Positions 3,565 to 15,999 of a stretch of DNA of 26,787 bases are shown here, piece by piece. Source of the stretch: a virus (Duplodnaviria > Caudoviricetes); the IMG/VR virus record IMGVR_UViG_3300045978_000411, positions 1 through 26,787 of that record; one strand, written 5' to 3'. The position numbers and the translations under genes are program-made. Positions within the stretch are counted from its first letter, which is position 1. Every line of letters starts with the position of its first letter. The notes under the pieces are model-generated. The model worked only from the letters and a program-made list of their open reading frames with translations, had not been told where the DNA came from and made no database searches.

Positions 3565-3606
3565 GGGAATGCGTGGTCTTTTTCATGGGTCGAACCACGC
3601 ATTCCC
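3565..3606 (-). repeat. 36-bp element family B, copy 1 (13-bp perfect stem)
   Basis: Minus strand gggAATGCGTGG-TTCGACccatgaaaaaga-CCACGCATTccc. Confidence 0.85.
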
Positions 3607-3955: not shown

Positions 3956-3976
3956 GGTTCGCTCCTGGCGCTCTGG

Positions 3977-4402
3977 TTAGAGCTTGATGATGATCTTGCC
4001 GTCGAGGATATCGATCTCGACCCCCATGTCCGCTGCGATGGTCTCGAGCCGTCGGGCAGTGGCTCGGAGATCATCGAAGGTGTAATGCTCCTTCACCTTC
4101 CTCTGGATCCGAGCTTCGGAGAGGATCGGGATGGAAATGGTGTGCGTCTTGGTGTCGTAGTGGACGTCTCGGATCTCTGTGATCCCGCACGCTGGCAGGT
4201 CAAGTCGGTCCGATCCCCTGTAGTGACCCTCACCTTTGTTGACGAGCTTTCCCGTGGAGGAGGGAGAGAGGAGAAGGCGATCCTCCACCTTAACCACGTC
4301 GAGCCGAGCCGGATTGCCGAGCTCCTTGAGCTCCGTGTCCCCGAGGAAGATAGAGATGTTGCGGGAACCGGGGGAGCTTGAGTTGTAGCATGAGTATCTC
4401 AT
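3977..4402 (-). CDS. hypothetical phage protein (141 aa)
   Basis: GAGGGAG RBS, ATGA overlap with the upstream gene. Confidence 0.75.
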   Translation of the reverse strand: MRYSCYNSSSPGSRNISIFLGDTELKELGNPARLDVVKVEDRLLLSPSSTGKLVNKGEGHYRGSDRLDLPACGITEIRDVHYDTKTHTISIPILSEARIQRKVKEHYTFDDLRATARRLETIAADMGVEIDILDGKIIIKL

Positions 4403-4698
4403 GTGTTGTCTCCCTCAAGGGTGTGGTCGAACAAGCTCATCTCGACGTTGTCGTAAGTGTTGAACAGCATCACTGCGCAGGGGAGCGGCTCTAGCAGGCC
4501 GCGCAGGCAGAGGTATTTGAAGAAGCTCTCTACATCGAACCACTCACGTCCTTGCAGTTGCTGCTCATAGTTCTCCTTGAGAAGGGTGGCAGGATTGAAG
4601 TCCTCCATTACCCTGTAGGTTCCATCGACCGAGTGATCCTCGCCGTAGTAGAGACAGCTTGTGGCGACGATCAGCTCACCTTTCCGCAGGGTACGCAC
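4399..4698 (-). CDS. hypothetical phage protein (99 aa)
   Basis: GTG 4698 after AGGAG RBS, in the ORF-track frame 4399..4779. Confidence 0.7.
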   Translation of the reverse strand: MRTLRKGELIVATSCLYYGEDHSVDGTYRVMEDFNPATLLKENYEQQLQGREWFDVESFFKYLCLRGLLEPLPCAVMLFNTYDNVEMSLFDHTLEGDNT

Positions 4699-4729
4699 TT
4701 TCTTTTCTCCTGGTTCAAAGGGTGCGCAG

Positions 4730-4762
4730 CTCAACCGAGCGCCGTTGGCGCTTAGGTTAGAG
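4730..4762 (-). repeat. hairpin element family A (mini-attC-like), best copy
   Basis: Minus strand CTCTAACCTAAGCGCC-AAC-GGCGCTCGGTTGAG; the TAA is the stop codon of 4757..4954. Confidence 0.85.
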
Positions 4763-4954
4763 ATTGATCTCCAGAACACAAGCGGCCTCGACGACGGTCT
4801 GTGGATGACCCGTGCGGTCGAAAAAGGCGATGCGGCCGGAGTAGAGCTGCTCGACCGTCGCGCGGCACACCTCGTAGGTAACCGGCTTCGGGCCGATCAC
4901 CTCATCGCCGTTGGAGAACACTAGCACTAGGACGAACATGGCGAAGGTAGACAT
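4757..4954 (-). CDS. small secreted protein (65 aa, two Cys)
   Basis: AGGAG RBS; signal-like N-terminus FAMFVLVLVFS. Confidence 0.65.
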   Translation of the reverse strand: MSTFAMFVLVLVFSNGDEVIGPKPVTYEVCRATVEQLYSGRIAFFDRTGHPQTVVEAACVLEINL

Positions 4955-4983
4955 GGTGGGTACTCCTGTAGAGATTGCCCATT

Positions 4984-5008
4984 ACCGAGCACTTACGTGC
5001 TCAGATCA
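4984..5008 (-). repeat. hairpin element family A copy
   Basis: Minus strand TGA-TCTGAGCAC-GTAA-GTGCTCGGT, directly after the stop of 5006..5212. Confidence 0.75.
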
Positions 5009-5212
5009 CGAGATGACCTTCGTAACTCGACCATCGAGCACGAGGACTGTAGCGTACCAGGTGTGCGGTCGGGGGGAGTGAGGGCCACAAACATACTCCT
5101 TCCCGTTCAGGACGGGAGTGCCGAGGCCAGGAGCATAGACTGTGACCAGGGCTCGGGCCTTGACCGCGTCCTTCAGGTCTTTCTTCGACTTGAAGTCGGG
5201 ACGAACGTACAT
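5006..5212 (-). CDS. conserved-looking small phage protein (68 aa)
   Basis: AGGAG RBS; FKSKKDLKDAV...GPHSPRPHTWYA pattern recalled from uncharacterised phage proteins. Confidence 0.8.
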   Translation of the reverse strand: MYVRPDFKSKKDLKDAVKARALVTVYAPGLGTPVLNGKEYVCGPHSPRPHTWYATVLVLDGRVTKVIS

Positions 5213-5247
5213 CAGAGCTACTCCTTTGCTCTCGGGTGTGATATAAG

Positions 5248-5294
5248 ACCGAGCGCCTATGGCGCTTGAGCTAGAGGTCGCTTAGGTTAGAGAT
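5248..5294 (-). repeat. hairpin element family A copy plus an extra left half-site
   Basis: Minus strand TAGCTCAAGCGCC-ATA-GGCGCTCGGT after the stop; 5279-5294 cgcttaggttagagat is identical to 4749-4764. Confidence 0.8.
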
Positions 5295-5732
5295 AAGCCT
5301 GTCGAGATCCTTCCTTAGCTCCCCAAAGGGGACATTAGCTCGAAGACGGCGCAGGAAGTTGTACATGGAGGGTGCTGCTGCCATGAGCTTGGCGTTGGAG
5401 AGGTTCTGCTCGTAGGTACCTCCGTAAGCAGCTCCTATGGTCTTCCAGGGGACGAGCTCTTCCTCCGAGAGGGGCTCGATGATGTGAACCCAGCCGGAGG
5501 AGTCGATGCCTTCGGCCTGCAGCTCGGGGTTCGGATCTTGGATTGTCCAGCTTCTGGTCACTTGCTTTCCCTTTCTGGGTTGGTCGATCTCGGCCTTGTT
5601 GGCGTCCCGCTCAGCCAGCAGGTCAGCGACTACCTGCCGCAATAAACCCTGCTCTGCTGGTTCCCACACTTTGGGTAGGATCTCTCTCACCTGCACGATG
5701 ACCTCTGGCGTGAGCCGCTCGCTGAAGGTCAT
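5271..5732 (-). CDS. hypothetical phage protein with NA(K/R)L(M/I)AAAP motif
   Basis: SNAKLMAAAPSMY resembles the ANARLIAAAP motif widespread in phage early proteins; GAGGAGG RBS. Confidence 0.8.
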   Translation of the reverse strand: MTFSERLTPEVIVQVREILPKVWEPAEQGLLRQVVADLLAERDANKAEIDQPRKGKQVTRSWTIQDPNPELQAEGIDSSGWVHIIEPLSEEELVPWKTIGAAYGGTYEQNLSNAKLMAAAPSMYNFLRRLRANVPFGELRKDLDRLISNLSDL

Positions 5733-5965
5733 CAGATGTCCTCCTCTTCGTCTTGCGTGCGCAACAGGTTGCTGTCGTGCTCGAGGTCCTCCTCTTCTGT
5801 GAGGAAGGCGTCAGGCAGAACAAATCCGTAGTTCACACTGCTGGCCAAGTTGCGGTAGGTCCAGCCGAACCTCTGACCTGTCCTGATAGCCGTTCCTAGG
5901 ACGATATCTGTCTGCTTCCGTTTGAGGGTGTTGGAGTGTTTGGTTGGGATGAAGATGTGAGACAT
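5732..5965 (-). CDS. hypothetical protein (77 aa, acidic tail)
   Basis: AAGGA RBS, stop/start coupling. Confidence 0.65.
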   Translation of the reverse strand: MSHIFIPTKHSNTLKRKQTDIVLGTAIRTGQRFGWTYRNLASSVNYGFVLPDAFLTEEEDLEHDSNLLRTQDEEEDI

Positions 5966-5989
5966 CTGCGTTGGTCCTTCTTAGGCAAC

Positions 5990-6451
5990 TCAACCGAGCG
6001 CTTCGTCGTTGGAGGGAAGAGGCAGACGGCAAGCTAAGAGGATCTCCCATCGCAGCTTGAGTGAATAGGGCGGGTAGTTGTCGGCGGCGTTGATGAAGGG
6101 CCTGAGCCCTTTGGGCCGTCGACCTAGGTGTCTTGCTGCGTAGCCCCACTGGCAGGTCTCGAGGTTCAAGAGGCCAAGCGGATCACAAACTGCAGTGATC
6201 GGGCATTGGCAGAGAGGAGGAGACCCATCAATGTGGAGGACTCGGCGAATGAAGCCATTTGGGGTGAGGAACCACGGATTGGTACTCTTGTTGGTGAGCT
6301 GGCGCAGACGGGAGAGGATCTCTCGGGTTCGGACGCAGTTGGGATGGAAAGAGGTCGGCATTACTTGTCTCCCCAAGGCAGATTGATTGGCCACCGTCAA
6401 GGCTTGGTCGATACAGCGCAGCGCACGGATCTCGCGATCGGTGAGGATCAT
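5990..6451 (-). CDS. hypothetical protein (153 aa)
   Basis: ATGA overlap with the upstream gene. Its 3' end contains a family A right half-site (GCGCTCGGTTGAGT) that supplies the TGA stop. Confidence 0.65.
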   Translation of the reverse strand: MILTDREIRALRCIDQALTVANQSALGRQVMPTSFHPNCVRTREILSRLRQLTNKSTNPWFLTPNGFIRRVLHIDGSPPLCQCPITAVCDPLGLLNLETCQWGYAARHLGRRPKGLRPFINAADNYPPYSLKLRWEILLACRLPLPSNDEALG

Positions 6452-6675
6452 GGCTCAAGCCCACCGCCGAAGCCCTCGCCCTCGGGCTCCAATTCGTGTT
6501 CGTCCTCAGAGAGCTCCGCGTAGGGTTGAAGCTCCGTTGGGGAATAGGTCCGAAAGCCTGTACAGGTCCAACGTCGAGCGGGATGCGCATAAGGATCATA
6601 GATCCAGCGATAGCCGCTGGGAGAATAGACGACCTCGACGTTGGGGGGCATCTTGCCGGAGCTCATGCTGCTCAT
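6448..6675 (-). CDS. hypothetical protein (75 aa)
   Basis: Fills the gap in the operon; acidic C-terminus. Confidence 0.55.
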   Translation of the reverse strand: MSSMSSGKMPPNVEVVYSPSGYRWIYDPYAHPARRWTCTGFRTYSPTELQPYAELSEDEHELEPEGEGFGGGLEP

Positions 6676-6680
6676 AGCTG

Positions 6681-7124
6681 CTATTCCGGTATGAGGTCGG
6701 CTAGGTCCTTGTGCAAGGCTCGGCCTGTGACGCGGCTAACTCCTCTCATCCCGGGCCGCAGTTTGGTGATCTTCCCGTCGTCGAACTGTGGGCTCGGCCT
6801 AGCGCCTACCAACCGCTCGACTCTTTGGGGCGCTTTCCCGGTCTGAAGGACGTGCCAGAGCTGCTGCGGCGAGCAGACGAGGACCCGTTCGCCCGATTGC
6901 AGGATCACCGTCATGGAGTTTCTGCCTGGTATGACCTGCATCGGTTCGAGCGCTGGTTGCGAGGCTGAGGGCTCCATCTCGGCAAGGCATTCCTTCATGA
7001 CTCGGAGCACATTCTGTTCGATCTCGTTGGAGGCTAGAGGCCCTGCCCGAGCGATGCGCTGCTTTAGGCCTGCTGCGTCAGCGAATGCCCACCCGCGAGC
7101 TGCGTCTTGAAAAGGAGTTATCAT
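6681..7124 (-). CDS. hypothetical phage protein (147 aa, MITPFQDAARGW...)
   Basis: ATG 7124 preceded by GGGAGG. Confidence 0.7.
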   Translation of the reverse strand: MITPFQDAARGWAFADAAGLKQRIARAGPLASNEIEQNVLRVMKECLAEMEPSASQPALEPMQVIPGRNSMTVILQSGERVLVCSPQQLWHVLQTGKAPQRVERLVGARPSPQFDDGKITKLRPGMRGVSRVTGRALHKDLADLIPE

Positions 7125-7246
7125 GAAGTCACCCTCCCGCCTCGGCACAGGCGTCGGTGCCGACATGTTGATGGAGTCGGCCAGAAGCCATGACCCATTT
7201 CACTGGCCAGGAAACCGCGATCCTTTGAGTGATCCCTTTCGTGCAT
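7121..7246 (-). CDS. possible 41-aa first early ORF (MHERDHSKDRGF...)
   Basis: GGAG ~8 nt upstream of ATG 7246; stop overlaps the ATG of the next gene (ATGA). Confidence 0.35.
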   Translation of the reverse strand: MHERDHSKDRGFLASEMGHGFWPTPSTCRHRRLCRGGRVTS

Positions 7247-7260
7247 TGTCATTCTCCATC

Positions 7261-7286
7261 CTCAACCGAGCACTTCGTGCTCAGGC
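7261..7286 (-). repeat. hairpin element family A copy
   Basis: Minus strand GCCTGAGCAC-GAA-GTGCTCGGTTGAG, at the head of the left arm. Confidence 0.8.
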
Positions 7287-7350
7287 GTGTGGCGTTGGGA
7301 AAGCATGAAGCATCTCCGTTTGCTTATTGCCGAAGGCAAAGCGATGTTAT

Positions 7351-7668
7351 CACGTGTTGCCGCATGGGAATATGCGACATTTTGTCGCACCATGCCCAAT
7401 TTCCCCTACATGTTCCCTATGTTTCCCTAATGTCCCCTAATATCACCCTAAAGTCCCCTGTGTCCCTATGTCGATCGATTTTGGGTCCCCATCTCGGACC
7501 TTATCTCACCCTATCTTACAATACCTATATGTATAATTTTTTTTTTAAGGTAAGGGGGGGTAAGGTCCGGGGGGTGAGGGGGGCGTAAAATGGAAAATCA
7601 TAGGAACAGAGGGGATATTAGGGTAACCATAGGGGATATTAGGGTAACACGATATGCGGCAATGCGTG
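7351..7668. repeat. large imperfect inverted repeat with phased CCCT/AGGG units around an AT-rich core; putative replication origin
   Basis: Seven CCCT units at ~10-bp spacing (7401-7470) are mirrored by AGG(G) units (7599-7648). CGGACCTTA/TAAGGTCCG flank an AT-rich core with a T10 run. C-to-G skew flips here. Confidence 0.7.
7373..7389. promoter_or_regulatory. palindromic operator TGCGACA-TTT-TGTCGCA (RegA/PrrA/RegR-box-like)
   Basis: Perfect 7-bp inverted repeat, repeated at 8565-8581. Confidence 0.6.
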
Positions 7669-7696
7669 GTTCGACATAGCTGCAACATCACGTATT
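7661..7696 (+). repeat. 36-bp element family B, copy 2
   Basis: AATGCGTGG-TTCGACatagctgcaaca-TCACGTATT; a right half-site also at ~7778-7792. Confidence 0.8.
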
Positions 7697-7975
7697 CTAC
7701 ATTTCGGTAGGTTTATTGTTGTTTTAGAGGTGGGGAAGTAGCTTTGTTGTTGTTTTGGGGATGGGGAGGGAGGTGCGGAAAAGACCACGTATCGTTTGCC
7801 GGGCCATACGTGGCCGTGGGCGATGTCGGCGCCGATGGGCATGGTGGTGGCCGGAACCCGGCCGATCGCGTCCACGGTGCCCGGTGGCCCGGCAATCGCC
7901 ATTCGACCCGATCCCGGTCCCAAGAAGAAGAACGCGCGCGTGAGACAGAACCTAGCTCCATCCCGAAAATAATTC

Positions 7976-8004
7976 TTGACATGACATCTCGCTTATCGTA
8001 TGGT
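7976..8004 (+). promoter_or_regulatory. sigma70-type promoter
   Basis: TTGACA (7976-7981), 17 nt, TATGGT (7999-8004), with an AT-rich upstream tract. Confidence 0.75.
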
Positions 8005-8052
8005 CCCGATGGTGATCGGACATTGGGTCCGATCCGAAATCGGAATACCCAA

Positions 8053-8562
8053 ATGGCAACCCGTACCCGTCGCCTCTCGAAGGTGATCGACGCCAACGCC
8101 AGGTCTCTTACCCTGGTGTTCCTCGGCGAGAAGGACAGCGAAGGCAATCCGACCGTCAACGATACCCTGGTGTTCAGCCTCTCCGACTACCCCAAGGCCA
8201 TTGTGACCCATCTTGCGCTTCACGGGCTTGGGCAGGTGCTCGGTGACGAAATCTCTGGCATCGGCGCCGATGGTGGCGATCCCGTTGAGATGGTCAAGGC
8301 CCGCAACGCGCCGCTCGTGAACGGCGACTGGTCGGCCGGCCGCGAGATCGATCGCTCCATCCTGGTCGAGGCCACCATGGCAGTATTCGCCAAGGCCGGC
8401 GTGGTTCGCGAGCGGGCGAAGGTCGAGGCGTACATCAACGGGCTCGACGCCAAGGAGGTCGCGAAGTACCGCCGGCGCCCTGACATCACCGTGGCCGTCG
8501 CCGCAATCCGCGAGGCTCGCGGCCAGACCGGCGATGACTTGGGAGCCCTGATCCCGGAGTAA
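8053..8562 (+). CDS. stand-alone hypothetical phage protein (169 aa, MATRTRRLSK...)
   Basis: ATG 8053 downstream of the promoter; strongly G/C-ending codons; own terminator. Confidence 0.85.
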   Translation: MATRTRRLSKVIDANARSLTLVFLGEKDSEGNPTVNDTLVFSLSDYPKAIVTHLALHGLGQVLGDEISGIGADGGDPVEMVKARNAPLVNGDWSAGREIDRSILVEATMAVFAKAGVVRERAKVEAYINGLDAKEVAKYRRRPDITVAVAAIREARGQTGDDLGALIPE

Positions 8563-8564
8563 CC

Positions 8565-8581
8565 TGCGACAAGTTGTCGCA
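8565..8581. promoter_or_regulatory. second TGCGACA-AGT-TGTCGCA palindrome
   Basis: Same arms and spacing as 7373-7389. Confidence 0.55.
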
Positions 8582-8596
8582 TCTGCCGCAAGGCGG

Positions 8597-8630
8597 GGCC
8601 GAGCGCCGAAAGGTTCTCGGCCTTTCCTTT
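8597..8630 (+). terminator. intrinsic terminator
   Basis: GGCCGAGcgCC-GAAA-GGttCTCGGCC stem-loop followed by TTTCCTTT, preceded by a GCAA-tetraloop hairpin (8583-8596). Confidence 0.65.
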
Positions 8631-8743
8631 GTCCGCTCGGGCAGGGCATCCTCCCCAGGCGGGCGGTCGGTCCGTCATCTGTGGCCACACGGGGGAGTTT
8701 GGAGGTTTTTGGGTCTTAGCGTATTCCCGAATTCATTTTCCTA

Positions 8744-8772
8744 TTGCACCGCCTCGTGACCTCTCTTATAAT
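8744..8772 (+). promoter_or_regulatory. sigma70-type promoter ahead of the late operon
   Basis: TTGCAC, 17 nt, TATAAT. Confidence 0.7.
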
Positions 8773-8849
8773 AATCGGGACGGGGTTCTTTCGGGATTAC
8801 GTCTTGCTACGCAAAGCTAAGCTTCGCAACCCTTTCTGCGGAAACTTAG

Positions 8850-9281
8850 ATGCCTCCCTATCGCGGACCAGAGAGAAGGCAACGAAGGTCGGAGGAATAT
8901 ATGGGGGAGGAGAGAAGGGGGTTGCTGGGAAAGCTGAACGGGAATGCCCCGGTTTGGCTGGCCTTTATTTTTCAGCTCGGAACTGTCGCCTGGTACGTTT
9001 TCAACATGAGGGCGGATATAGATAACAAGGCGGATGCAGCGACGCTGGTGAAGCTGGCAGGAGTGGTGGAATATCTGGCGCAATCGAAAGCGAACCAGAT
9101 TGAAGTAGCAGGGCTGGGGCGTGATATTGCAGGATTAACGGCGGTGACGAATGCTTTAGGAGGATCGGTTAATTCGCTAGAGGATTATACGGCAAGATTG
9201 CAGGAGCAGACGAAGAACATGTCGGTGCATATCGGGAACCTGGAAGAGGCGAACAAGTCCATCTGGCGGCAGACGAGGTAA
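8850..9281 (+). CDS. membrane-anchored coiled-coil protein (start possibly 8901)
   Basis: TM segment APVWLAFIFQLGTVAWYVF followed by heptad-rich helices. Confidence 0.7.
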   Translation: MPPYRGPERRQRRSEEYMGEERRGLLGKLNGNAPVWLAFIFQLGTVAWYVFNMRADIDNKADAATLVKLAGVVEYLAQSKANQIEVAGLGRDIAGLTAVTNALGGSVNSLEDYTARLQEQTKNMSVHIGNLEEANKSIWRQTR

Positions 9282-9301
9282 GCGGAAGCCGGAGGAAAGA
9301 G

Positions 9302-9922
9302 ATGCTACCCGGAGTGAAGGCAGTTCCCATAACGGCGACGGAGGGCAGACCGCTTTCCTCGCAGAAGGCGGTGACAGCGGTCACCTCGGTCGGCCGGCGC
9401 CATCACGAGATACTGACGTATGTCCTGGCCAATCCGCACAAGCCCATCACGGAGATAGCGCAAGCGCTCGGGTACACCACGGTTTGGGTTCAGAGGGTGG
9501 TCAGGTCGGACATGTTTCAGCTGGAGCTCCGACAGCACCAAGAGGCCCACAGGGCCAGAGTCGTAGGGGCGATGGAAGAGAGGCTATACAGCGTTACCCA
9601 TCGGATGCTGGAGGATATGGATAGGAGGTTCAAAGGCGGGCAGGCATCGGAGAAATTTGTACTGGGAGCAGCACCCACGTTGCTCGGAGCAATCGGTTAT
9701 GGCAGTCAGCATCGAGGAGAGGAGCCGCAACGGCATCTACATGTCCACGTCAACGGAGACCAGCTGGCCAGGGCAAGGGAACTCCAGCGAACCAGCTACG
9801 AGGCCAGTGACGTCCCATCAAAGCCTGCTGCTGACGAAGCTCAAACGGGTCCAGTTCCAGCGCTCGAAGCACCGGCCGCAGATGCCAACTGCGCCGAAGA
9901 GAATTCGTGGGAGGTTGTATGA
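9302..9922 (+). CDS. putative terminase small subunit (HTH protein)
   Basis: GGAGG RBS; HTH-like ITEIAQALGYTTVWVQRVV; lies upstream of TerL. Confidence 0.65.
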   Translation: MLPGVKAVPITATEGRPLSSQKAVTAVTSVGRRHHEILTYVLANPHKPITEIAQALGYTTVWVQRVVRSDMFQLELRQHQEAHRARVVGAMEERLYSVTHRMLEDMDRRFKGGQASEKFVLGAAPTLLGAIGYGSQHRGEEPQRHLHVHVNGDQLARARELQRTSYEASDVPSKPAADEAQTGPVPALEAPAADANCAEENSWEVV

Positions 9923-10337
9923 AGAGCAGATTCTAGGGTGGCTCAAGCGAGGTCTCGGGGAAAGGGTGATAGATGATGCAAGACTCAGATACGAAATGGC
10001 TGACGGAGAATCAGGTGCTCTGCATCCTGATGCAATCATCCTCTGTCAGCATTCACTTATCCTGGTTGAGATCAAACTCAATGTCAGTCTCAGGTCGTGG
10101 TGGCAGCTGCGGCATGTATACGGACCTCTGCTTCGCAAGGCAATGCCAGCTGCGCGAGTTCGAGACCTCATCATTTCTGCCTACTACCCAGCAGCAGAGC
10201 TGCTCGATCAGCTACCGGAAGACCCCATCGCTGTGCGGAACCCGCTAGATGCAGGATTCACCGGGCTCAGCCTCATCGTACTGGCAGAGGACAAACCCAG
10301 GACTGGCGGTCCTACAGGCCCTCTCGGCAGCACCTAA
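9882..10337 (+). CDS. PD-(D/E)xK family nuclease
   Basis: GRLYE...HPDAII...LVEIK...Q...Y motif set; start uncertain. Confidence 0.7.
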   Translation: MPTAPKRIRGRLYEEQILGWLKRGLGERVIDDARLRYEMADGESGALHPDAIILCQHSLILVEIKLNVSLRSWWQLRHVYGPLLRKAMPAARVRDLIISAYYPAAELLDQLPEDPIAVRNPLDAGFTGLSLIVLAEDKPRTGGPTGPLGST

Positions 10338-10365
10338 GCCAAGCGCCGAGGGCGCTCGGTTGAGC
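10334..10365 (+). repeat. hairpin element family A copy
   Basis: CTAAGCCAAGCGCC-GAG-GGCGCTCGGTTGAGC spans the nuclease stop and the probable TerL TTG start. Confidence 0.85.
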
Positions 10366-11877
10366 ACAGGTCCTGACGCTCGGGAGGCTCGGACGAACCA
10401 GGTTGATGTTGAGGAGCTGGTCGAGCTGTGTGCCCTGAATCCGCAGCTATTCTGCACCACCTTCTTCCCCAAAACCTTCAGACAGGACTTTCCGGTCTTC
10501 GACCAGGATGTTTGGAGGCTCCTCGAGTCGCACAAGTACCAATTCGTCGCCCTCAAAATGTTCAGAGGGTCAGCGAAGACAACCCGCTTACGCACCTTCA
10601 CCCTCAAGAGGGCCGTGTACGGGATCTCGAGAACTTGTATTTTTGTCTCGGTTTCGCAGCGGCATAGTATTCAGTCGGTGAGGTGGATTAAGAAGCAGGT
10701 GGAGGAGAATGAACTGCTGCGCTCGGTCTATGGGGTAGAACCGGGGAGCAAGTGGACAGATGAGTGGATTGAGATATACTCGAGGGCACTTCAGCAGTCT
10801 TGTGCTATAGTTGCCCTGGGAATTACTGGACAAACTCGAGGGTTGAATATAGATGATTACCGGCCTGACCTGATTGTAGTAGATGATCCGTGCGATGAGG
10901 AGAACACTGCATCAGATGAGCAGAGAGAGAGGACGGAGGAAAGATTTTTCTCTGCGCTGGCCCAGAGCCTTGCGCCCAGGACAGAATGTCCCGAGGCTAT
11001 GATGGTGCTGTCGCAAACGCCGTTCATTGATGGGGACCTCGTATCGCAGTGCGAGAAGGATCCGACCTGGGCAAATAGGTCCTACGGTTGCTTTCTCCCC
11101 AACGGGGAAAGTAGCTGGCCCTCGAGGTTCCCCACAGAGACACTCCTGGCAGAGAAGCAAGCCCACGTTGCCAGAGGCCAGGTGATGCTCTGGATGCGGG
11201 AGAAAGAAGTTACCATCATTGCAGACGAGCTAATGGATTTCAAACCTTCGTGGGCGAGGTTTTGGGATAACCTAGATCCACAGGCTCAGCTCGTAACCTT
11301 CATCGGGATTGATCCGGTTCCGCCTCCATCGGGTAGGCAGATCGCCGAGATGTTCTCCAAGAAGGACTTCGAGGTACTGGCCGTGGTGGGCCTCTACCGC
11401 GGGATGTTCTTCGTGCTCGAGATCCAGAGGAACCGCGGGCACCAACCAGATTGGACGGAGAACACCTTCATTAACCTGGTACAGAAGTGGAAGCCCACCT
11501 CCTGTAGAGTTGAGGCGAACAACTATCAGAGGACCCTACAGTATTTGCTCGAGCGGAAGATGCGGGAGACTAGGGTCTTCGTGCCGATTAACCCTGTAAC
11601 GGAGATGAGGAAGAAGCGACACAGGATCGTGCAGACATTAGCGCAGGTAGCATCACAAGGCGCCTTCTACATGCATGCGACGCAGGTGGAGCTGATTTCG
11701 CAATTCTCCCGATATCCTCTGGTCGATCATGATGATGATCTGGACGCGGTGGCGATGGCCGTGGAGGAAGGGCTGGAGTACTACAGGAAAGGGGTCGAGT
11801 GGGACGAGGATGGGAAGCTGCAGCTTTACCAACACGATCAGATGGACTGGTCCAGTGGCATTCAGACTGCACCGTAA
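10360..11877 (+). CDS. terL: terminase large subunit
   Basis: Walker A-like FRGSAKTT; RG..RPDLIVVDD Walker B; RNase H-like nuclease motifs IGIDP, VEAN and HDDDLDA. Start probably TTG 10360 (ORF open from 10249). Confidence 0.93.
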   Translation: MSTGPDAREARTNQVDVEELVELCALNPQLFCTTFFPKTFRQDFPVFDQDVWRLLESHKYQFVALKMFRGSAKTTRLRTFTLKRAVYGISRTCIFVSVSQRHSIQSVRWIKKQVEENELLRSVYGVEPGSKWTDEWIEIYSRALQQSCAIVALGITGQTRGLNIDDYRPDLIVVDDPCDEENTASDEQRERTEERFFSALAQSLAPRTECPEAMMVLSQTPFIDGDLVSQCEKDPTWANRSYGCFLPNGESSWPSRFPTETLLAEKQAHVARGQVMLWMREKEVTIIADELMDFKPSWARFWDNLDPQAQLVTFIGIDPVPPPSGRQIAEMFSKKDFEVLAVVGLYRGMFFVLEIQRNRGHQPDWTENTFINLVQKWKPTSCRVEANNYQRTLQYLLERKMRETRVFVPINPVTEMRKKRHRIVQTLAQVASQGAFYMHATQVELISQFSRYPLVDHDDDLDAVAMAVEEGLEYYRKGVEWDEDGKLQLYQHDQMDWSSGIQTAP

Positions 11878-11935
11878 GCTGAGCGCCGCAGGCGCTAGGT
11901 TGAGTTGCGGCGCTCGGTTGAGCGGTGCTCGGTGG
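11875..11935 (+). repeat. hairpin element family A copy plus two tandem right half-sites
   Basis: TAAGCTGAGCGCC-GCA-GGCGCTAGGTTGAGT, then GGCGCTCGGTTGAGC, then GGTGCTCGGTGG. Confidence 0.85.
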
Positions 11936-11977
11936 AACCCTGTGACTCCTGGAGGCGAGTCGTTCAGTTTGGTGAGT

Positions 11978-12046
11978 ATGATAATCCTTGGTAGTATCTT
12001 TGCTTGTTTGACGCTCGGCGTTGCTCTCCATCTCGTGCTGGGATAA
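11978..12046 (+). CDS. possible 22-aa hydrophobic micropeptide
   Basis: MIILGSIFACLTLGVALHLVLG fills the gap before the portal gene. Confidence 0.35.
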   Translation: MIILGSIFACLTLGVALHLVLG

Positions 12047-12051
12047 TAGAG

Positions 12052-13959
12052 ATGTTCTCCCTCAAGATCCCCTTTGGAGGAGAGAAACATCAGAAGGTGG
12101 TGGAGGCGCTCGCCTCGAGAAGGAAGCTGGCAGATGAGGGACATGGGAAGATAGAAGATAGGCTGCTCGAGGCGGATAAGCTATATAGAGCATACAGTCC
12201 GGATACGGAAAAAGTCGCGGCAGCGAAAGCGGAACGCCGGGCAGGGGAGATAGAATATGTGCAGATTAACATTCCGTTCTCCACGGCTACGCTGTTGACA
12301 GCGCATACCTATTGGACCTCGGTCTTCCTCTCCCGCTCTCCCATCTTCCAGTATATGTCGCTGTCGGAGGGACCGGAGGATAATGTTCTGGCAGTTGAGG
12401 CCCTGATTAATTATCAGATGGCCCGAGGGAGGAGCCTCCCGCTTTGGGGCTGGCTGATGGATGTAGGTTATTATGGAAGGGGAATATTGGGTCATTATTG
12501 GGCCGAGGAGGTCAAGACTATTGCACGCTACGAAGAGCGGCCAGTGGAGGTGGAAGGTGTTCCCATCGAGAAAGCCCGACCCGAGCGAGCCATCGTTCGA
12601 GAGACGCTACCAGGGTACGCTGGAAATCGGCTCTTCAACGTTCATCCACGAGACTTTCGACCAGATCCAAGGGTCTCACTGTCCGAGCTCCAGCGGGGCG
12701 AATTCTGCGGTCGGATCGTACGACCCTCGTGGAACGATATCGTTATTGGAGAAGCTGAAGGAAGGTACTTCAACGTCGAAGAGTTAAAGAAGCGAACCTC
12801 GAGAGCATTCGGCGGCGAGAGCATCGTGAGCTCGGTGCCGGGGAAGGAATATCCGGATTTAAACCTCGGATCTGGGGTGCTGCCCGAGGGCCCAGGTTTT
12901 ATTGAGTGCCACGAATATTACGTGAACCTTATCCCAGCGCAATGGGGACTTTCGGCAGGAGCAACGACTCCGGAGAAATGGGTATTTACGTGGTGGAATG
13001 ACGAGCTGCTGATCGAGGCTCGGCCCTTTGGCCATATTCACGACCGTTACCCTTATGAGGTTCTCGAGTACGAGGTGGATCCGTATTCCATCTCCTCGAG
13101 AGGCGTGCTGGAGATGCTTGATCCGCTGAACTATCTGATGACCTGGCTCGTCAATGTGCATTTCTATAACGTGAGAGCTATCCTCAACGGGACGTTCGTT
13201 GCGGATACGGCAAGGTTGATGACCCCGGACTTTAAGAAGAAAGGTCCAGGGAGGATCTTCCGGCTCAACCCGAGCTATTCCGGGACTGACGTGCGGACGG
13301 TACTGGCGCAGCTGCCCGTGGCGGATGTGACGCAGCAGAATATCCAGGACCTTAGACTGTTGGAGGATCTGTGCGGACGCCTCATTGGCGCTTCGGCCAA
13401 TACGATGGGGGTGGTGAACCCAGGGGGAAGGAAGACAGCTACGGAGATCAGGTCGTCAACAGCTGGTGCAGCGGGCAGGATGAAGACGAATACGGAGTAC
13501 TTCTCCGCAATGGGTTTTGCCCCGCTGGGCGGAGCTTTGCTGTCGAACTCGCAGCAGTTCTACAGAGCAGAGCAGAAACTCCTCATTGCTGGGGACCAGT
13601 GGCGGAATATGGAGTTTATCCAGGTCAATCCGATGATGCTGGCTGGGGAGTTCGACTATGTGCCAGTCGATGGGACGATGCCGATAGATAGACTGGCACA
13701 GGCGACCCTCTGGCGAGAGATGTTCCAGGTCGCGGGATCTGTCCCGCAAATTGGGCAGCAATATGATATCGCAGGGATTTTCTCGTGGGTTGCACAGCTT
13801 GCAGGGTTGAGGAACATTAACAGGTTTAAGGTGCAGGTGGCTCCTCCGATGGCTCCGGGTATGTCAATGGCAGGTGCGGGGCCCGAGCTACCGACAGTGG
13901 GGAACAGACGGGAGGTACCGTTGGGAGTGGTAGGTAGGAATGTTGGGCCAGCAGCGTAA
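12052..13959 (+). CDS. portal protein (P22/podovirus-like)
   Basis: 635 aa directly after TerL; motifs G.GI..YW, DF.PDP and G...KTATE typical of podoviral portals. Confidence 0.88.
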   Translation: MFSLKIPFGGEKHQKVVEALASRRKLADEGHGKIEDRLLEADKLYRAYSPDTEKVAAAKAERRAGEIEYVQINIPFSTATLLTAHTYWTSVFLSRSPIFQYMSLSEGPEDNVLAVEALINYQMARGRSLPLWGWLMDVGYYGRGILGHYWAEEVKTIARYEERPVEVEGVPIEKARPERAIVRETLPGYAGNRLFNVHPRDFRPDPRVSLSELQRGEFCGRIVRPSWNDIVIGEAEGRYFNVEELKKRTSRAFGGESIVSSVPGKEYPDLNLGSGVLPEGPGFIECHEYYVNLIPAQWGLSAGATTPEKWVFTWWNDELLIEARPFGHIHDRYPYEVLEYEVDPYSISSRGVLEMLDPLNYLMTWLVNVHFYNVRAILNGTFVADTARLMTPDFKKKGPGRIFRLNPSYSGTDVRTVLAQLPVADVTQQNIQDLRLLEDLCGRLIGASANTMGVVNPGGRKTATEIRSSTAGAAGRMKTNTEYFSAMGFAPLGGALLSNSQQFYRAEQKLLIAGDQWRNMEFIQVNPMMLAGEFDYVPVDGTMPIDRLAQATLWREMFQVAGSVPQIGQQYDIAGIFSWVAQLAGLRNINRFKVQVAPPMAPGMSMAGAGPELPTVGNRREVPLGVVGRNVGPAA

Positions 13960-13992
13960 CCTGAGCACCTCCGGCGCTCGGCGAGTGCTAGG
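13957..13992 (+). repeat. hairpin element family A copy
   Basis: TAACCTGAGCACC-TCC-GGCGCTCGGCGAG then TGCTAGG; the TAA is the portal stop. Confidence 0.8.
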
Positions 13993-14007
13993 CGGAGGGT
14001 ACCAAAA

Positions 14008-14253
14008 ATGCTTGAGCTGACAGTAGCGGTCCTCTGGTCCGTTACCAACTGTTCTCCCTCTAGGGAGATGGAAAGACTGCTGAAGGGAAGGGGAATGGAG
14101 GTGGTGCAACAGCACCAGTTGAAGGATACCTCGGTGGGAGAGCTGTGGTATCGGGAGAAGGATCAGACGGTGATCCTGGTGCAGAGGTTTCCATCGGGGT
14201 TAAGTTGCTCGATAATGACAGGGGCAGGAGTTTACATGGGAAAGGTGACCTAG
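14008..14253 (+). CDS. small secreted protein with two Cys
   Basis: GGAGG RBS; hydrophobic N-terminus; C...ELW...PSGLSC pattern. Confidence 0.7.
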   Translation: MLELTVAVLWSVTNCSPSREMERLLKGRGMEVVQQHQLKDTSVGELWYREKDQTVILVQRFPSGLSCSIMTGAGVYMGKVT

Positions 14254-14469
14254 ATGGCGGAGATGACGGCTACCAAAGCGCAAGCAGCTGGGATCGGAGC
14301 AGGGGTGGGGAGTGCCCTGGCGAAGATCATCTCGTGGGCCTGTTGGCAGGCAGGGTTGGACACCTCCACGATTGAGGCGCCGATGGAGGTTATTATATCG
14401 GCGATTCTCGCCATGCTTACGACCTACTATGCACCGGCCAACACGTATAAGCCGGAGCAAAATAAATGA
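14254..14469 (+). CDS. putative holin (2 TM)
   Basis: 71 aa, two hydrophobic segments, two Met near the start (MAEM), upstream of the endolysin. Confidence 0.6.
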   Translation: MAEMTATKAQAAGIGAGVGSALAKIISWACWQAGLDTSTIEAPMEVIISAILAMLTTYYAPANTYKPEQNK

Positions 14470-14768
14470 AGAAGCTCAGTCTTTTGCTGCTCTTGCTGCT
14501 GCCGGCGTGCGAGCATTCGCTCGTGCCGAAAGCGACCTTGGCGCTCGGGGCAAGCTGCAAGGCGTATGCGAATGCCCTCCGAGTCCTGACCCCGATGAAG
14601 GCAGAGGGGCAGCTCACCAAGGAGCAGATCCAGCTGGTGGATAAGAGCAACTCAGCCGTTGATGAGCTCTGTCTGGGAGAGCCGCCCGAGGACATCTACG
14701 ATGCCATCTCCCGAGTGAGTGCGGCGACCAACGCAGTTCTGCTGCTGACGCTGGAGGAGAAGAAATGA
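14466..14768 (+). CDS. lipoprotein, possible spanin component
   Basis: MKKLSLLLLLLLPAC lipobox, within the lysis cluster. Confidence 0.75.
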   Translation: MKKLSLLLLLLLPACEHSLVPKATLALGASCKAYANALRVLTPMKAEGQLTKEQIQLVDKSNSAVDELCLGEPPEDIYDAISRVSAATNAVLLLTLEEKK

Positions 14769-14944
14769 ACCCCGCCTTGATTGCCTTGATCGTCGGCTCG
14801 ATCGGTCAGGCGCTTGAGTATTCTCTGAAGCTGACTGCATTGGTGAAGGAGGCGGAGGACATGTCGGACGAGGAGGTGGCTGAGAAGTACCGAGAGCTCA
14901 TTGCTGACTACAAGGCAGCGAGGGAGGAATGGAATAATGCCTAG
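14765..14944 (+). CDS. 59-aa protein with hydrophobic N-terminus (lysis accessory or spanin partner?)
   Basis: Manual translation MNPALIALIVGSIGQALEYSLKL...EEWNNA; GGAGGAG RBS, ATGA overlap. Confidence 0.7.
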   Translation: MNPALIALIVGSIGQALEYSLKLTALVKEAEDMSDEEVAEKYRELIADYKAAREEWNNA

Positions 14945-15365
14945 CAACGGACCGCCTTGGAAGCTCTCGAGGGAGTCGAAGGAGAACCTGAAGGGGGTGC
15001 ATGAGCATCTCGTCCAGGTAATCGAGCGGGCCATCGAGATCAGTCCGCTGGACTTCAAGGTACTCGAGGGCACTCGCTCGATGAAACGACAGGAGCTGTT
15101 GCTGTCCGCTGGGGCATCGACCACCCTCAATTCCCGGCACTTGACAGGTCATGCGGTGGACCTGGCAGTGCTCCTGGGAGGAGAGGTCAGATGGGACTGG
15201 CCCCTCTATCGAATCTTGTGGGCCTCGGGGGTGTATCCAGCGGCGCAGGAAATCGGGGTGCTGGTCGAGTGGGGAGGGAACTGGGAAAGCTTCCCAGACG
15301 GCGGGCATTTCCAGCTCCCGTGGATCGCCTACCCGCCAGTGAAGGAGGAGCCGCGGAATGCGTGA
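14937..15365 (+). CDS. endolysin, peptidase M15 (L-Ala-D-Glu peptidase type)
   Basis: EG.RS..RQ, SRHLTGHAVD (SxHxxGxAxD), WGGNW and DGGHFQL motifs; GGAGG RBS. Confidence 0.93.
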   Translation: MPSNGPPWKLSRESKENLKGVHEHLVQVIERAIEISPLDFKVLEGTRSMKRQELLLSAGASTTLNSRHLTGHAVDLAVLLGGEVRWDWPLYRILWASGVYPAAQEIGVLVEWGGNWESFPDGGHFQLPWIAYPPVKEEPRNA

Positions 15366-15999
15366 GCAGTTGGTAATGGCAGGGCAGTTCTGGTGTCCCG
15401 AGCCTGATCGGCAGATGGTTGAGAAGCTCGGTAATCGGGACGATGTCACCATTAAGGAGGCGATGAACTACGTCACTCACAGGGAAACAGCGGTGGATGT
15501 GGGAGCCTACATCGGCGATTGGACCCGACCGCTGTGCTTCCTGTTCGACCAGGTGTACGCGTTCGAGCCGGATCCGATCCTGGTCCATTGCCTGTATCGT
15601 AACCTGGAGATGCACACAAACGTGGCCGTGTTTCCGGCGGCTCTGGGGGAGGAGACTCGACGAGCCGGCTTTACCCATCTATCAGGAGGTCGGTCGCACA
15701 TCGGGGGAGCGAACGGGATCGCCCTTATTATCCCGCTCGATGCACTATATCTGGAGAGCGCTGGACTGCTGAAGTTCGACTGCGAAGGGTACGAGTTGTT
15801 TGCCGTGCGTGGCGCGATCGACACTATTCGGACCTTCAAGCCGGTCGTGATCTTGGAGGAGAACGACTGTGCTAGGCGGTACGGACTAAATCCGGCGCAG
15901 GCGCGGAAGCTGTTGGAGAGTGAAGGAATGGAGGTGGTGTTTCGGTATGAGTATCTTCCTGAGAACTGGGATGTGGTGATGGCATGGCCGAAGACATAG
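15358..15999 (+). CDS. FkbM-family SAM-dependent methyltransferase
   Basis: VDVGAYIG, YAFEP, ALG and LKFDCEGYE...GA motifs. Confidence 0.92.
   Translation: MREQLVMAGQFWCPEPDRQMVEKLGNRDDVTIKEAMNYVTHRETAVDVGAYIGDWTRPLCFLFDQVYAFEPDPILVHCLYRNLEMHTNVAVFPAALGEETRRAGFTHLSGGRSHIGGANGIALIIPLDALYLESAGLLKFDCEGYELFAVRGAIDTIRTFKPVVILEENDCARRYGLNPAQARKLLESEGMEVVFRYEYLPENWDVVMAWPKT

Follow-up and report, generated by a model that had tools for sequence, protein, structure and literature searches.

What are the short imperfect palindromes that stand at gene ends in both arms of a phage genome, and what do they do there? The stretch in question, IMG/VR record IMGVR_UViG_3300045978_000411 (26,787 nt, hereafter the window), is part of a tailed phage with a complete genome of about 46.6 kb; another IMG/VR record, G001 (46,649 nt, rated complete), matches it at 99.96% identity across the whole window. 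Its + strand encodes the terminase large subunit, an SU10-type portal and the capsid, and its - strand carries small genes with no assigned function. An earlier note on this sequence had described the palindromes as hairpins resembling miniature integron attC sites, and offered two explanations: a single-stranded DNA recombination or cassette-shuffling signal, and a hairpin acting in RNA. Here we report that they form a real, lineage-specific family of hairpins anchored to stop codons, and that they are not attC sites. They plausibly work in the manner of ribosome termination structures (RTS), a functional reading that, like all others below, is drawn from sequence.

The family comprises seven full hairpins of 31-33 nt and six partial copies, all lying in the sense of transcription in both arms. 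The full copies (n=7) align over 33 columns, of which 10 are invariant, at a mean identity of 75%; each folds into a single stem of 10-14 bp with mismatches and a loop of 3-5 nt, the distance between the arms varying among copies (5, 4 or 3 nt). Pattern search and alignment recovered all seven full copies of the earlier note at the same places and on the same strands, as well as its half copies at 3966, 5279, 5987 and 11909-11937, and added one more at 13985. Its account also held that orientation flips at the centre, copies following transcription on either side, and that no U-tract follows a copy (seven full copies checked), while the tail that it had placed in the consensus, GGTTGAG, belongs to the family but is intact in only four of the seven. 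Palindromes of the form AGCRC-N3..8-GYGCT occur at these seven places alone in both the window and the 46,649-nt genome, all copies lie within 10 kb of that genome, and none is reversed. A 13-mer, GYGCTMGGTTGAG, has six exact occurrences in the genome, all six in the sense direction and intergenic or at gene ends, and tandem 3' arms lacking a partner lie at 11910, 11925 and 13985.

The oriented pattern was observed seven times against a mean of 0.017 and a maximum of 1 in 300 first-order Markov shuffles, a comparison that is post hoc, as the pattern was taken from the copies themselves. When the best of all 5-mers was allowed as a control, 30 shuffled windows yielded hairpin families of 4-6, so that the 5-bp core, taken by itself, exceeds chance by only a small margin. 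The element is real on the strength of its 33-nt likeness and its position.

That position proves to be exact. The earlier note had seen that most copies begin at a stop codon, and an in-frame stop does fill the slot in six of the seven full copies; beyond this, the stem (AGCRC) begins exactly 4 nt after that stop in the same six and in the half copy at 3966. These seven are the in-register cases among 43 open reading frames (ORFs), hand-picked to tile the window, that were examined for the position of AGCRC, and their stops are TAA five times, TGA once and TAG once. Where an arm is duplicated at 5279, the duplicate's TAA is not in frame, and it is the true stop 16 nt further on that keeps the register. 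This fixed 4-nt stop register is a new observation. The stops appear to be native where they can be checked: the terminase has the Ala-Pro-stop ending of its family (Pro is the last residue in 85 of 91 distinct relatives), and the end of a 68-aa gene coincides with that of its homologues. Both genes keep the family C-terminus, and the hairpin therefore seems to have been added right at native stops.

On the - strand, the outermost member is a half copy with only the 5' arm (3966..3982), in which the in-frame TAA of ORF 3977-4402 is followed by 4 nt and AGCGC, and a Shine-Dalgarno-like AGGAG stands in place of the 3' arm. Full copies follow at 4730..4762 (at the TAA of ORF 4757-4954, and the sole copy with both AAC and GTT), at 4980..5011 (with a 4-nt loop, at the TGA of ORF 5006-5212) and at 5244..5276 (at the TAG of ORF 5271-5732), the last joined by the 16-nt tandem duplicate of a 5' arm at 5279..5294, within the last codons of the same ORF. 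ORF 5006-5212 (-) is the 68-aa gene; it lies between two copies and belongs to a widespread phage family whose other members are without the element. A degenerate copy at 5989..6014 retains its 3' arm, and ORF 5990-6451 reads through it to stop at the TGA of GGTTGAG. The copy at 7261..7291, with a 3-nt loop, has ACG in the stop slot and stands ahead of the first left-arm gene. Gene and repeat orientation then flip across a divergent central region (7292..8052), which holds a predicted sigma-70-like promoter site at 7976-8004 (+).

The + strand copies accompany the core genes. The full copy at 10332..10364 begins at the TAA of an ORF ending at 10337 and contains, inside its 3' arm, the predicted TTG start of the terminase (10360, a start that rests on the gene caller), with GAGG in the loop 8 nt upstream. 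At 11872..11937, a full copy at the terminase TAA is followed by the two extra tandem 3' arms at 11910 and 11925, and at 13954..13997 a full copy at the portal TAA, with an A.C mismatch in its stem, is followed by the extra 3' arm at 13985. The terminase large subunit itself occupies 10360..11877 (+) and the portal, identified by a match to the SU10_portal domain, 12052..13959 (+).

Comparison with relatives sets these junctions apart. Counts of relatives come from about 160 related loci fetched among the matches listed, with terminase identities of 33-56% or less; the best terminase identity among the matches listed was 55%, and scans with the capsid and portal found nothing closer than 54%. 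None of the terminase-related loci tested has the element. Of 91 distinct relatives, 79 have a start codon overlapping or directly adjoining the terminase stop, and in 66 of 95 the portal begins within 26 nt of the terminase; in this phage 174 nt separate the two, and a copy stands at the beginning of that gap. Similarly, the portal-to-capsid distance is 3,113 nt here versus 1,024-1,446 nt in 66 of 67 relatives. The extra DNA of about 2 kb (14008..15999, +; small proteins, an endolysin and a methyltransferase) starts right after the last copy and is absent at that place in 66 of 67 relatives. Because the relatives keep these genes coupled and the copies lie at the breaks here, the copies mark the sites at which core genes, coupled elsewhere, have been separated. 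Uncoupling does not require them, since 29 of 95 relatives have inserts of at least 46 nt at the terminase-portal junction, and all 16 of these that were inspected are without the element.

Searches further afield returned the same phage. A covariance model, which the earlier note had proposed to run over the whole genome and its relatives, uncovered no further full copy in the complete record and scored no higher than 18 bits in a selection of 100 from about 230 loci, with weak matches in 2 of 30 related records; the relatives are without the element. Exact-pattern scans of IMG/VR matched this phage only (12 of 12 stretches; 9 of 12 in another scan, the other three within coding frames), and of the 63 stretches matched by a looser scan, 12 belong to this phage and nearly all the others, none of them clustered, fall within a T4-like prohead protease gene. 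An exact-pattern scan of GTDB gave four single matches, all within long open frames, and no repeat family. BLAST of the copies against phage and plasmid records found none, apart from one chance match, and Rfam covariance models had no match in the window at E <= 1. No comparable post-stop repeat family emerged among the terminase relatives when 228 loci were searched for analogues, and the papers reached by searches on repeated post-stop hairpins in phages and on stalling dependent on repetitive extragenic palindromic (REP) elements do not describe the element. The element is thus known from one near-clonal phage, although each of its traits has precedent.

An RNA hairpin is the simplest account, given the strict orientation, the variable loop, the fixed register and the position at uncoupled junctions; the second explanation in the earlier note fits the orientation and the 4-nt register. 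We tentatively favour, with somewhat less than even confidence, a lineage-specific RNA insulator of the RTS type that was copied between gene ends. With the stop codon in the A site, the invariant stem would start at mRNA position +11, the mouth of the mRNA channel; according to Bao et al. 2020 the channel reaches 11 nt from the first base of the P-site codon and hairpins 11-12 nt downstream impede the ribosome (PMC7282821), which puts the stem start within one base of the channel mouth that they give. Chemla et al. 2020 describe stable structure centred just after stops, which reduces re-initiation and is commoner between genes separated by at least 25 nt (PMC7518266). The element resembles RTS in being a stable hairpin directly after the stop at uncoupled junctions, but RTS denote a folding tendency with no common sequence (PMC7518266), whereas here a single sequence family recurs in a fixed register and in a phage. 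Windows of 40 nt after the stop fold at -9.2 to -24.7 kcal/mol in six of the seven cases, past the RTS threshold of -6 kcal/mol, which many other genes of the window also pass.

As an insulator, the hairpin would fold at the front edge of the terminating ribosome and keep it from moving along the message and re-initiating at the following gene. The outer helix, including the stop codon, would be melted by the ribosome, leaving an inner stem of 6-8 bp, and translation of the gene downstream would then depend on a ribosome-binding site of its own. The terminase, with its predicted start and GAGG inside a copy, would be throttled and so kept low. Copies may have spread within the lineage from gene end to gene end by short-homology copying, possibly helped by the phage's Sak4-like annealing protein; single-strand annealing proteins recombine short, divergent sequences (PMC8093625). 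Such spread fits the observation that copies of one arm have coding letters before the stop in common.

Several results weigh against an insulator. Its function would require no particular sequence, whereas ten columns here do not vary and 3' arms are found repeated on their own. The register would be equally expected if the element carried its own stop and selection kept it, and at 7261 the slot holds no stop. Sense RNA is the more stable strand in three of the seven copies and antisense in four. RNA z-scores of single copies are mostly weak (-0.9 to -1.9, and 0.1 for the copy at 13957), strong values being confined to the copies at 4984 and 11875. The stem co-variation claimed in the earlier note comes down to one pair, which co-varies in two copies and is an A.C mismatch in another; its covariation score is matched by 207 of 500 shuffles in the bulged register, with a borderline 26 of 500 in the unbulged one. 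Weaker than stated, too, is the bulged pyrimidine of the same note, which is extrahelical in one register and pairs with G in all seven copies in the other. When ribosome-covered bases were forced unpaired, the predicted accessibility of ribosome-binding sites changed little and in no consistent direction. A read-through or frameshift fusion was considered separately and rejected: an open frame continues into the following gene in +1 at four junctions and in 0 at two, one junction has none, and no slippery site was seen.

The over-conserved sequence and the partnerless tandem 3' arms keep alive a stoperator-like reading, in which a phage or host protein binds the DNA or transcript at the asymmetric 13-mer GYGCTMGGTTGAG or at the palindromic core, in short intergenic gaps and effectively in one orientation, halting or licensing elongation. 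We regard this as unlikely, though marginally the least so of the alternatives. Stoperators of mycobacteriophage L5 are likewise 13-mers in short intergenic spaces, oriented with transcription (PMC9283540), and the many short sites along the transcribed arms here, including the 13-nt asymmetric tail that also stands alone, recall them, as do the six exact 13-mers in sense; the sequence is also more conserved than an insulator requires. Here, however, the conserved part is the palindrome, invariant in seven of seven copies, while the asymmetric tail is intact in four; the spacing of the arms varies by 2 nt, which a rigid dimer site would presumably not tolerate; and the exact tie to the stop is left unexplained. 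Profile searches of the window and the complete record found no repressor family match among the phage proteins, and the complete genome has no integrase, hence no sign of lysogeny. Two candidate binding proteins gave predicted models with pLDDT of 42 and 50 and no fold match. The protein of ORF 3977-4402 (-) has a sub-threshold structural likeness to AbrB/SpoVT clusters (TM 0.43-0.54; a low-confidence model with no PDB match).

A carried stop would also explain the register if the element were a neutral or selfish mini-repeat, REP-like or similar to a miniature inverted-repeat transposable element, that lands at gene ends and is kept because it is harmless. Its size and place are those of REPs, which are multi-copy, extragenic, imperfect palindromes of 20-40 bp in families marked GTAG or CGTC (PMC3733652), and its absence from all relatives tested, along with the decayed, duplicated and half copies, looks like turnover. 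Against this, the GTAG/CGTC tag is in none of the seven copies, neither a Y1 transposase (the REP-associated tyrosine transposase) nor any head-to-head dimer was found, and the seven copies are clustered, of one orientation and in a phage. The earlier note had allowed for a host-derived repeat in random orientation, but the exact-pattern GTDB scan found no such family and the orientation is not random. A diverged repeat family may exist in an unsampled host; overall, we consider a neutral repeat about as unlikely as a stoperator-like site.

Rather less probable, in our judgement, is a 30-nt element that homes precisely to native stops and is read sequence-specifically by a phage or host factor, whose action depends on whether a ribosome is parked on the stop. 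It would act as a translation-sensing switch in both phage operons, uncoupling core genes and opening slots for new ones.

The copies could instead direct processing or decay at gene boundaries, as short stems that a host RNase cuts or that hold off 3' exonucleases, thereby splitting and stabilising the polycistronic message; this would account for the sense orientation, the place between a stop and the next ribosome-binding site, the lack of a U-tract and the conserved stem letters. Phage T7 has RNase III sites between its genes, but a mismatched stem of 10-14 bp is short for RNase III, and we hold this reading to be improbable. Nor is intrinsic termination likely, as the copies lack a U-tract and ribosomes would suppress any terminator so near a stop codon (PMC4824070); neither promoter-like nor terminator-like sites were called at any copy. 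The promoter-early stem-loop (PeSL) cassettes of T4-type phages resemble the family as a repeated regulatory hairpin between small variable genes with possible homology for exchange (PMC2839356); unlike them, the copies here lack a promoter and a terminator tail, and they also follow core morphogenesis genes. In an unrelated phage contig (L282, 1363-8172), six promoter-plus-hairpin cassettes that are PeSL-like stand between small genes.

The attC-like recombination site, by which a host integrase or an unrecognised phage enzyme would add or shuffle genes, fared worst. Two copies do stand at the 5' edge of extra DNA, for the four copies more stable as antisense the bottom strand is the better-folding one, and attC sites that IntI1 recombines can occur in lytic phages (PMC9892861). 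Like the attC sites of integrons and of phage clusters of attC sites lacking an integrase (CALINs), the element is an imperfect palindrome that overlaps a stop and is oriented with the genes (PMC4889954, PMC9892861), and its best copy reads TAAC...GTT. An attC site, however, has R and L boxes, unpaired spacers, extrahelical bases, an AAC/GTT triplet and a terminal structure of 20-100 nt (PMC4889954), whereas here a single stem within 31-33 nt lacks the two-box layout, and AAC and GTT are both intact in one copy of seven. Models for tyrosine recombinase (PF00589), serine recombinase, Y1 transposase (PF01797) and reverse transcriptase had no match in the complete record, so that a cognate enzyme, which the earlier note had proposed to look for in the rest of the contig, did not turn up. 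The genes do not travel with the element either: copies follow core genes, none stands at the far (3') edge of either insert, the relatives' inserts inspected at the terminase-portal junction lack it, and the flanked 68-aa gene has homologues in 62 other loci (40-60% identity; no close relatives among them), none with the element.

Sequencing runs matching the phage, which carry the label soil metagenome, were compared for 8 of the 24 listed (6 DNA and 2 RNA, all as contigs), with no joints listed; one run contig covers 3920-16985 unchanged, and one low-depth entry (12548 to 4673) does not coincide with a copy. These run contigs are not evidence of absence, as contigs drop rare variants and cannot show RNA ends. 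On the structural and genetic grounds above, the attC-like option is very improbable, and the element is not evidence for a new integron-like system.

Other features of the genome deserve mention. A second repeat family, AATRCGTGGTTCGAC-N14-ACGYATTC, has four copies with a fixed 14-nt spacer and a possible stem of 11-12 bp, at 3589-3606 (-), 7661 (+), 18319 (+) and about 8.26 kb to the left of the window in G001 (+); it is not locked to the direction of transcription. An operator-like palindrome, TGCGACA-N3-TGTCGCA, occurs twice, at 7371-7390 and 8563-8582. The latter begins at the stop of ORF 8053-8562; it shares its TAA-CCTG lead-in with the copy at 13957, and two further hairpins and a T-rich tail come after it. 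A terminase relative (L082, 1411-11589) carries six GTCGC-N3-GCGAC palindromes, one of them at its terminase-portal junction. Near both edges of the 2-kb insert lies an 11-nt direct repeat (13985-13995 and 15869-15879), which may be due to chance; its second occurrence is inside the methyltransferase gene.

ORF 8053-8562 (+) is a conserved phage gene with no assigned function that lies behind a near-consensus sigma-70 promoter; its homologue is on the opposite strand in most relatives that have one. ORF 9915-10337, between the putative small and the large terminase, shows a PD-(D/E)XK-like motif by eye and has homologues in about 50 related loci, with no Pfam or PHROG match. The divergent centre contains low-complexity tracts, C-rich and then G-rich, at 7400-7650; contigs of one run break there and are deeper from 7517 to 11849, a pattern that is not clear in other runs and points only weakly to a packaging start or to terminal redundancy. 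Outside the window, G001 encodes a family A DNA polymerase with a uracil-DNA glycosylase (UDG) domain, a primase-helicase and a ParB-methyltransferase, in addition to the Sak4-like annealing protein.

If the insulator reading is true, this phage would hold a set of stop-codon hairpins that is natural, defined by sequence and fixed in one register, while in its relatives translation of the same genes stays coupled. Seven natural variants would then allow a direct test of how post-stop structure affects re-initiation, a matter of debate. The family may also reveal how core genes that were coupled come apart in a phage to make room for additional genes between them.

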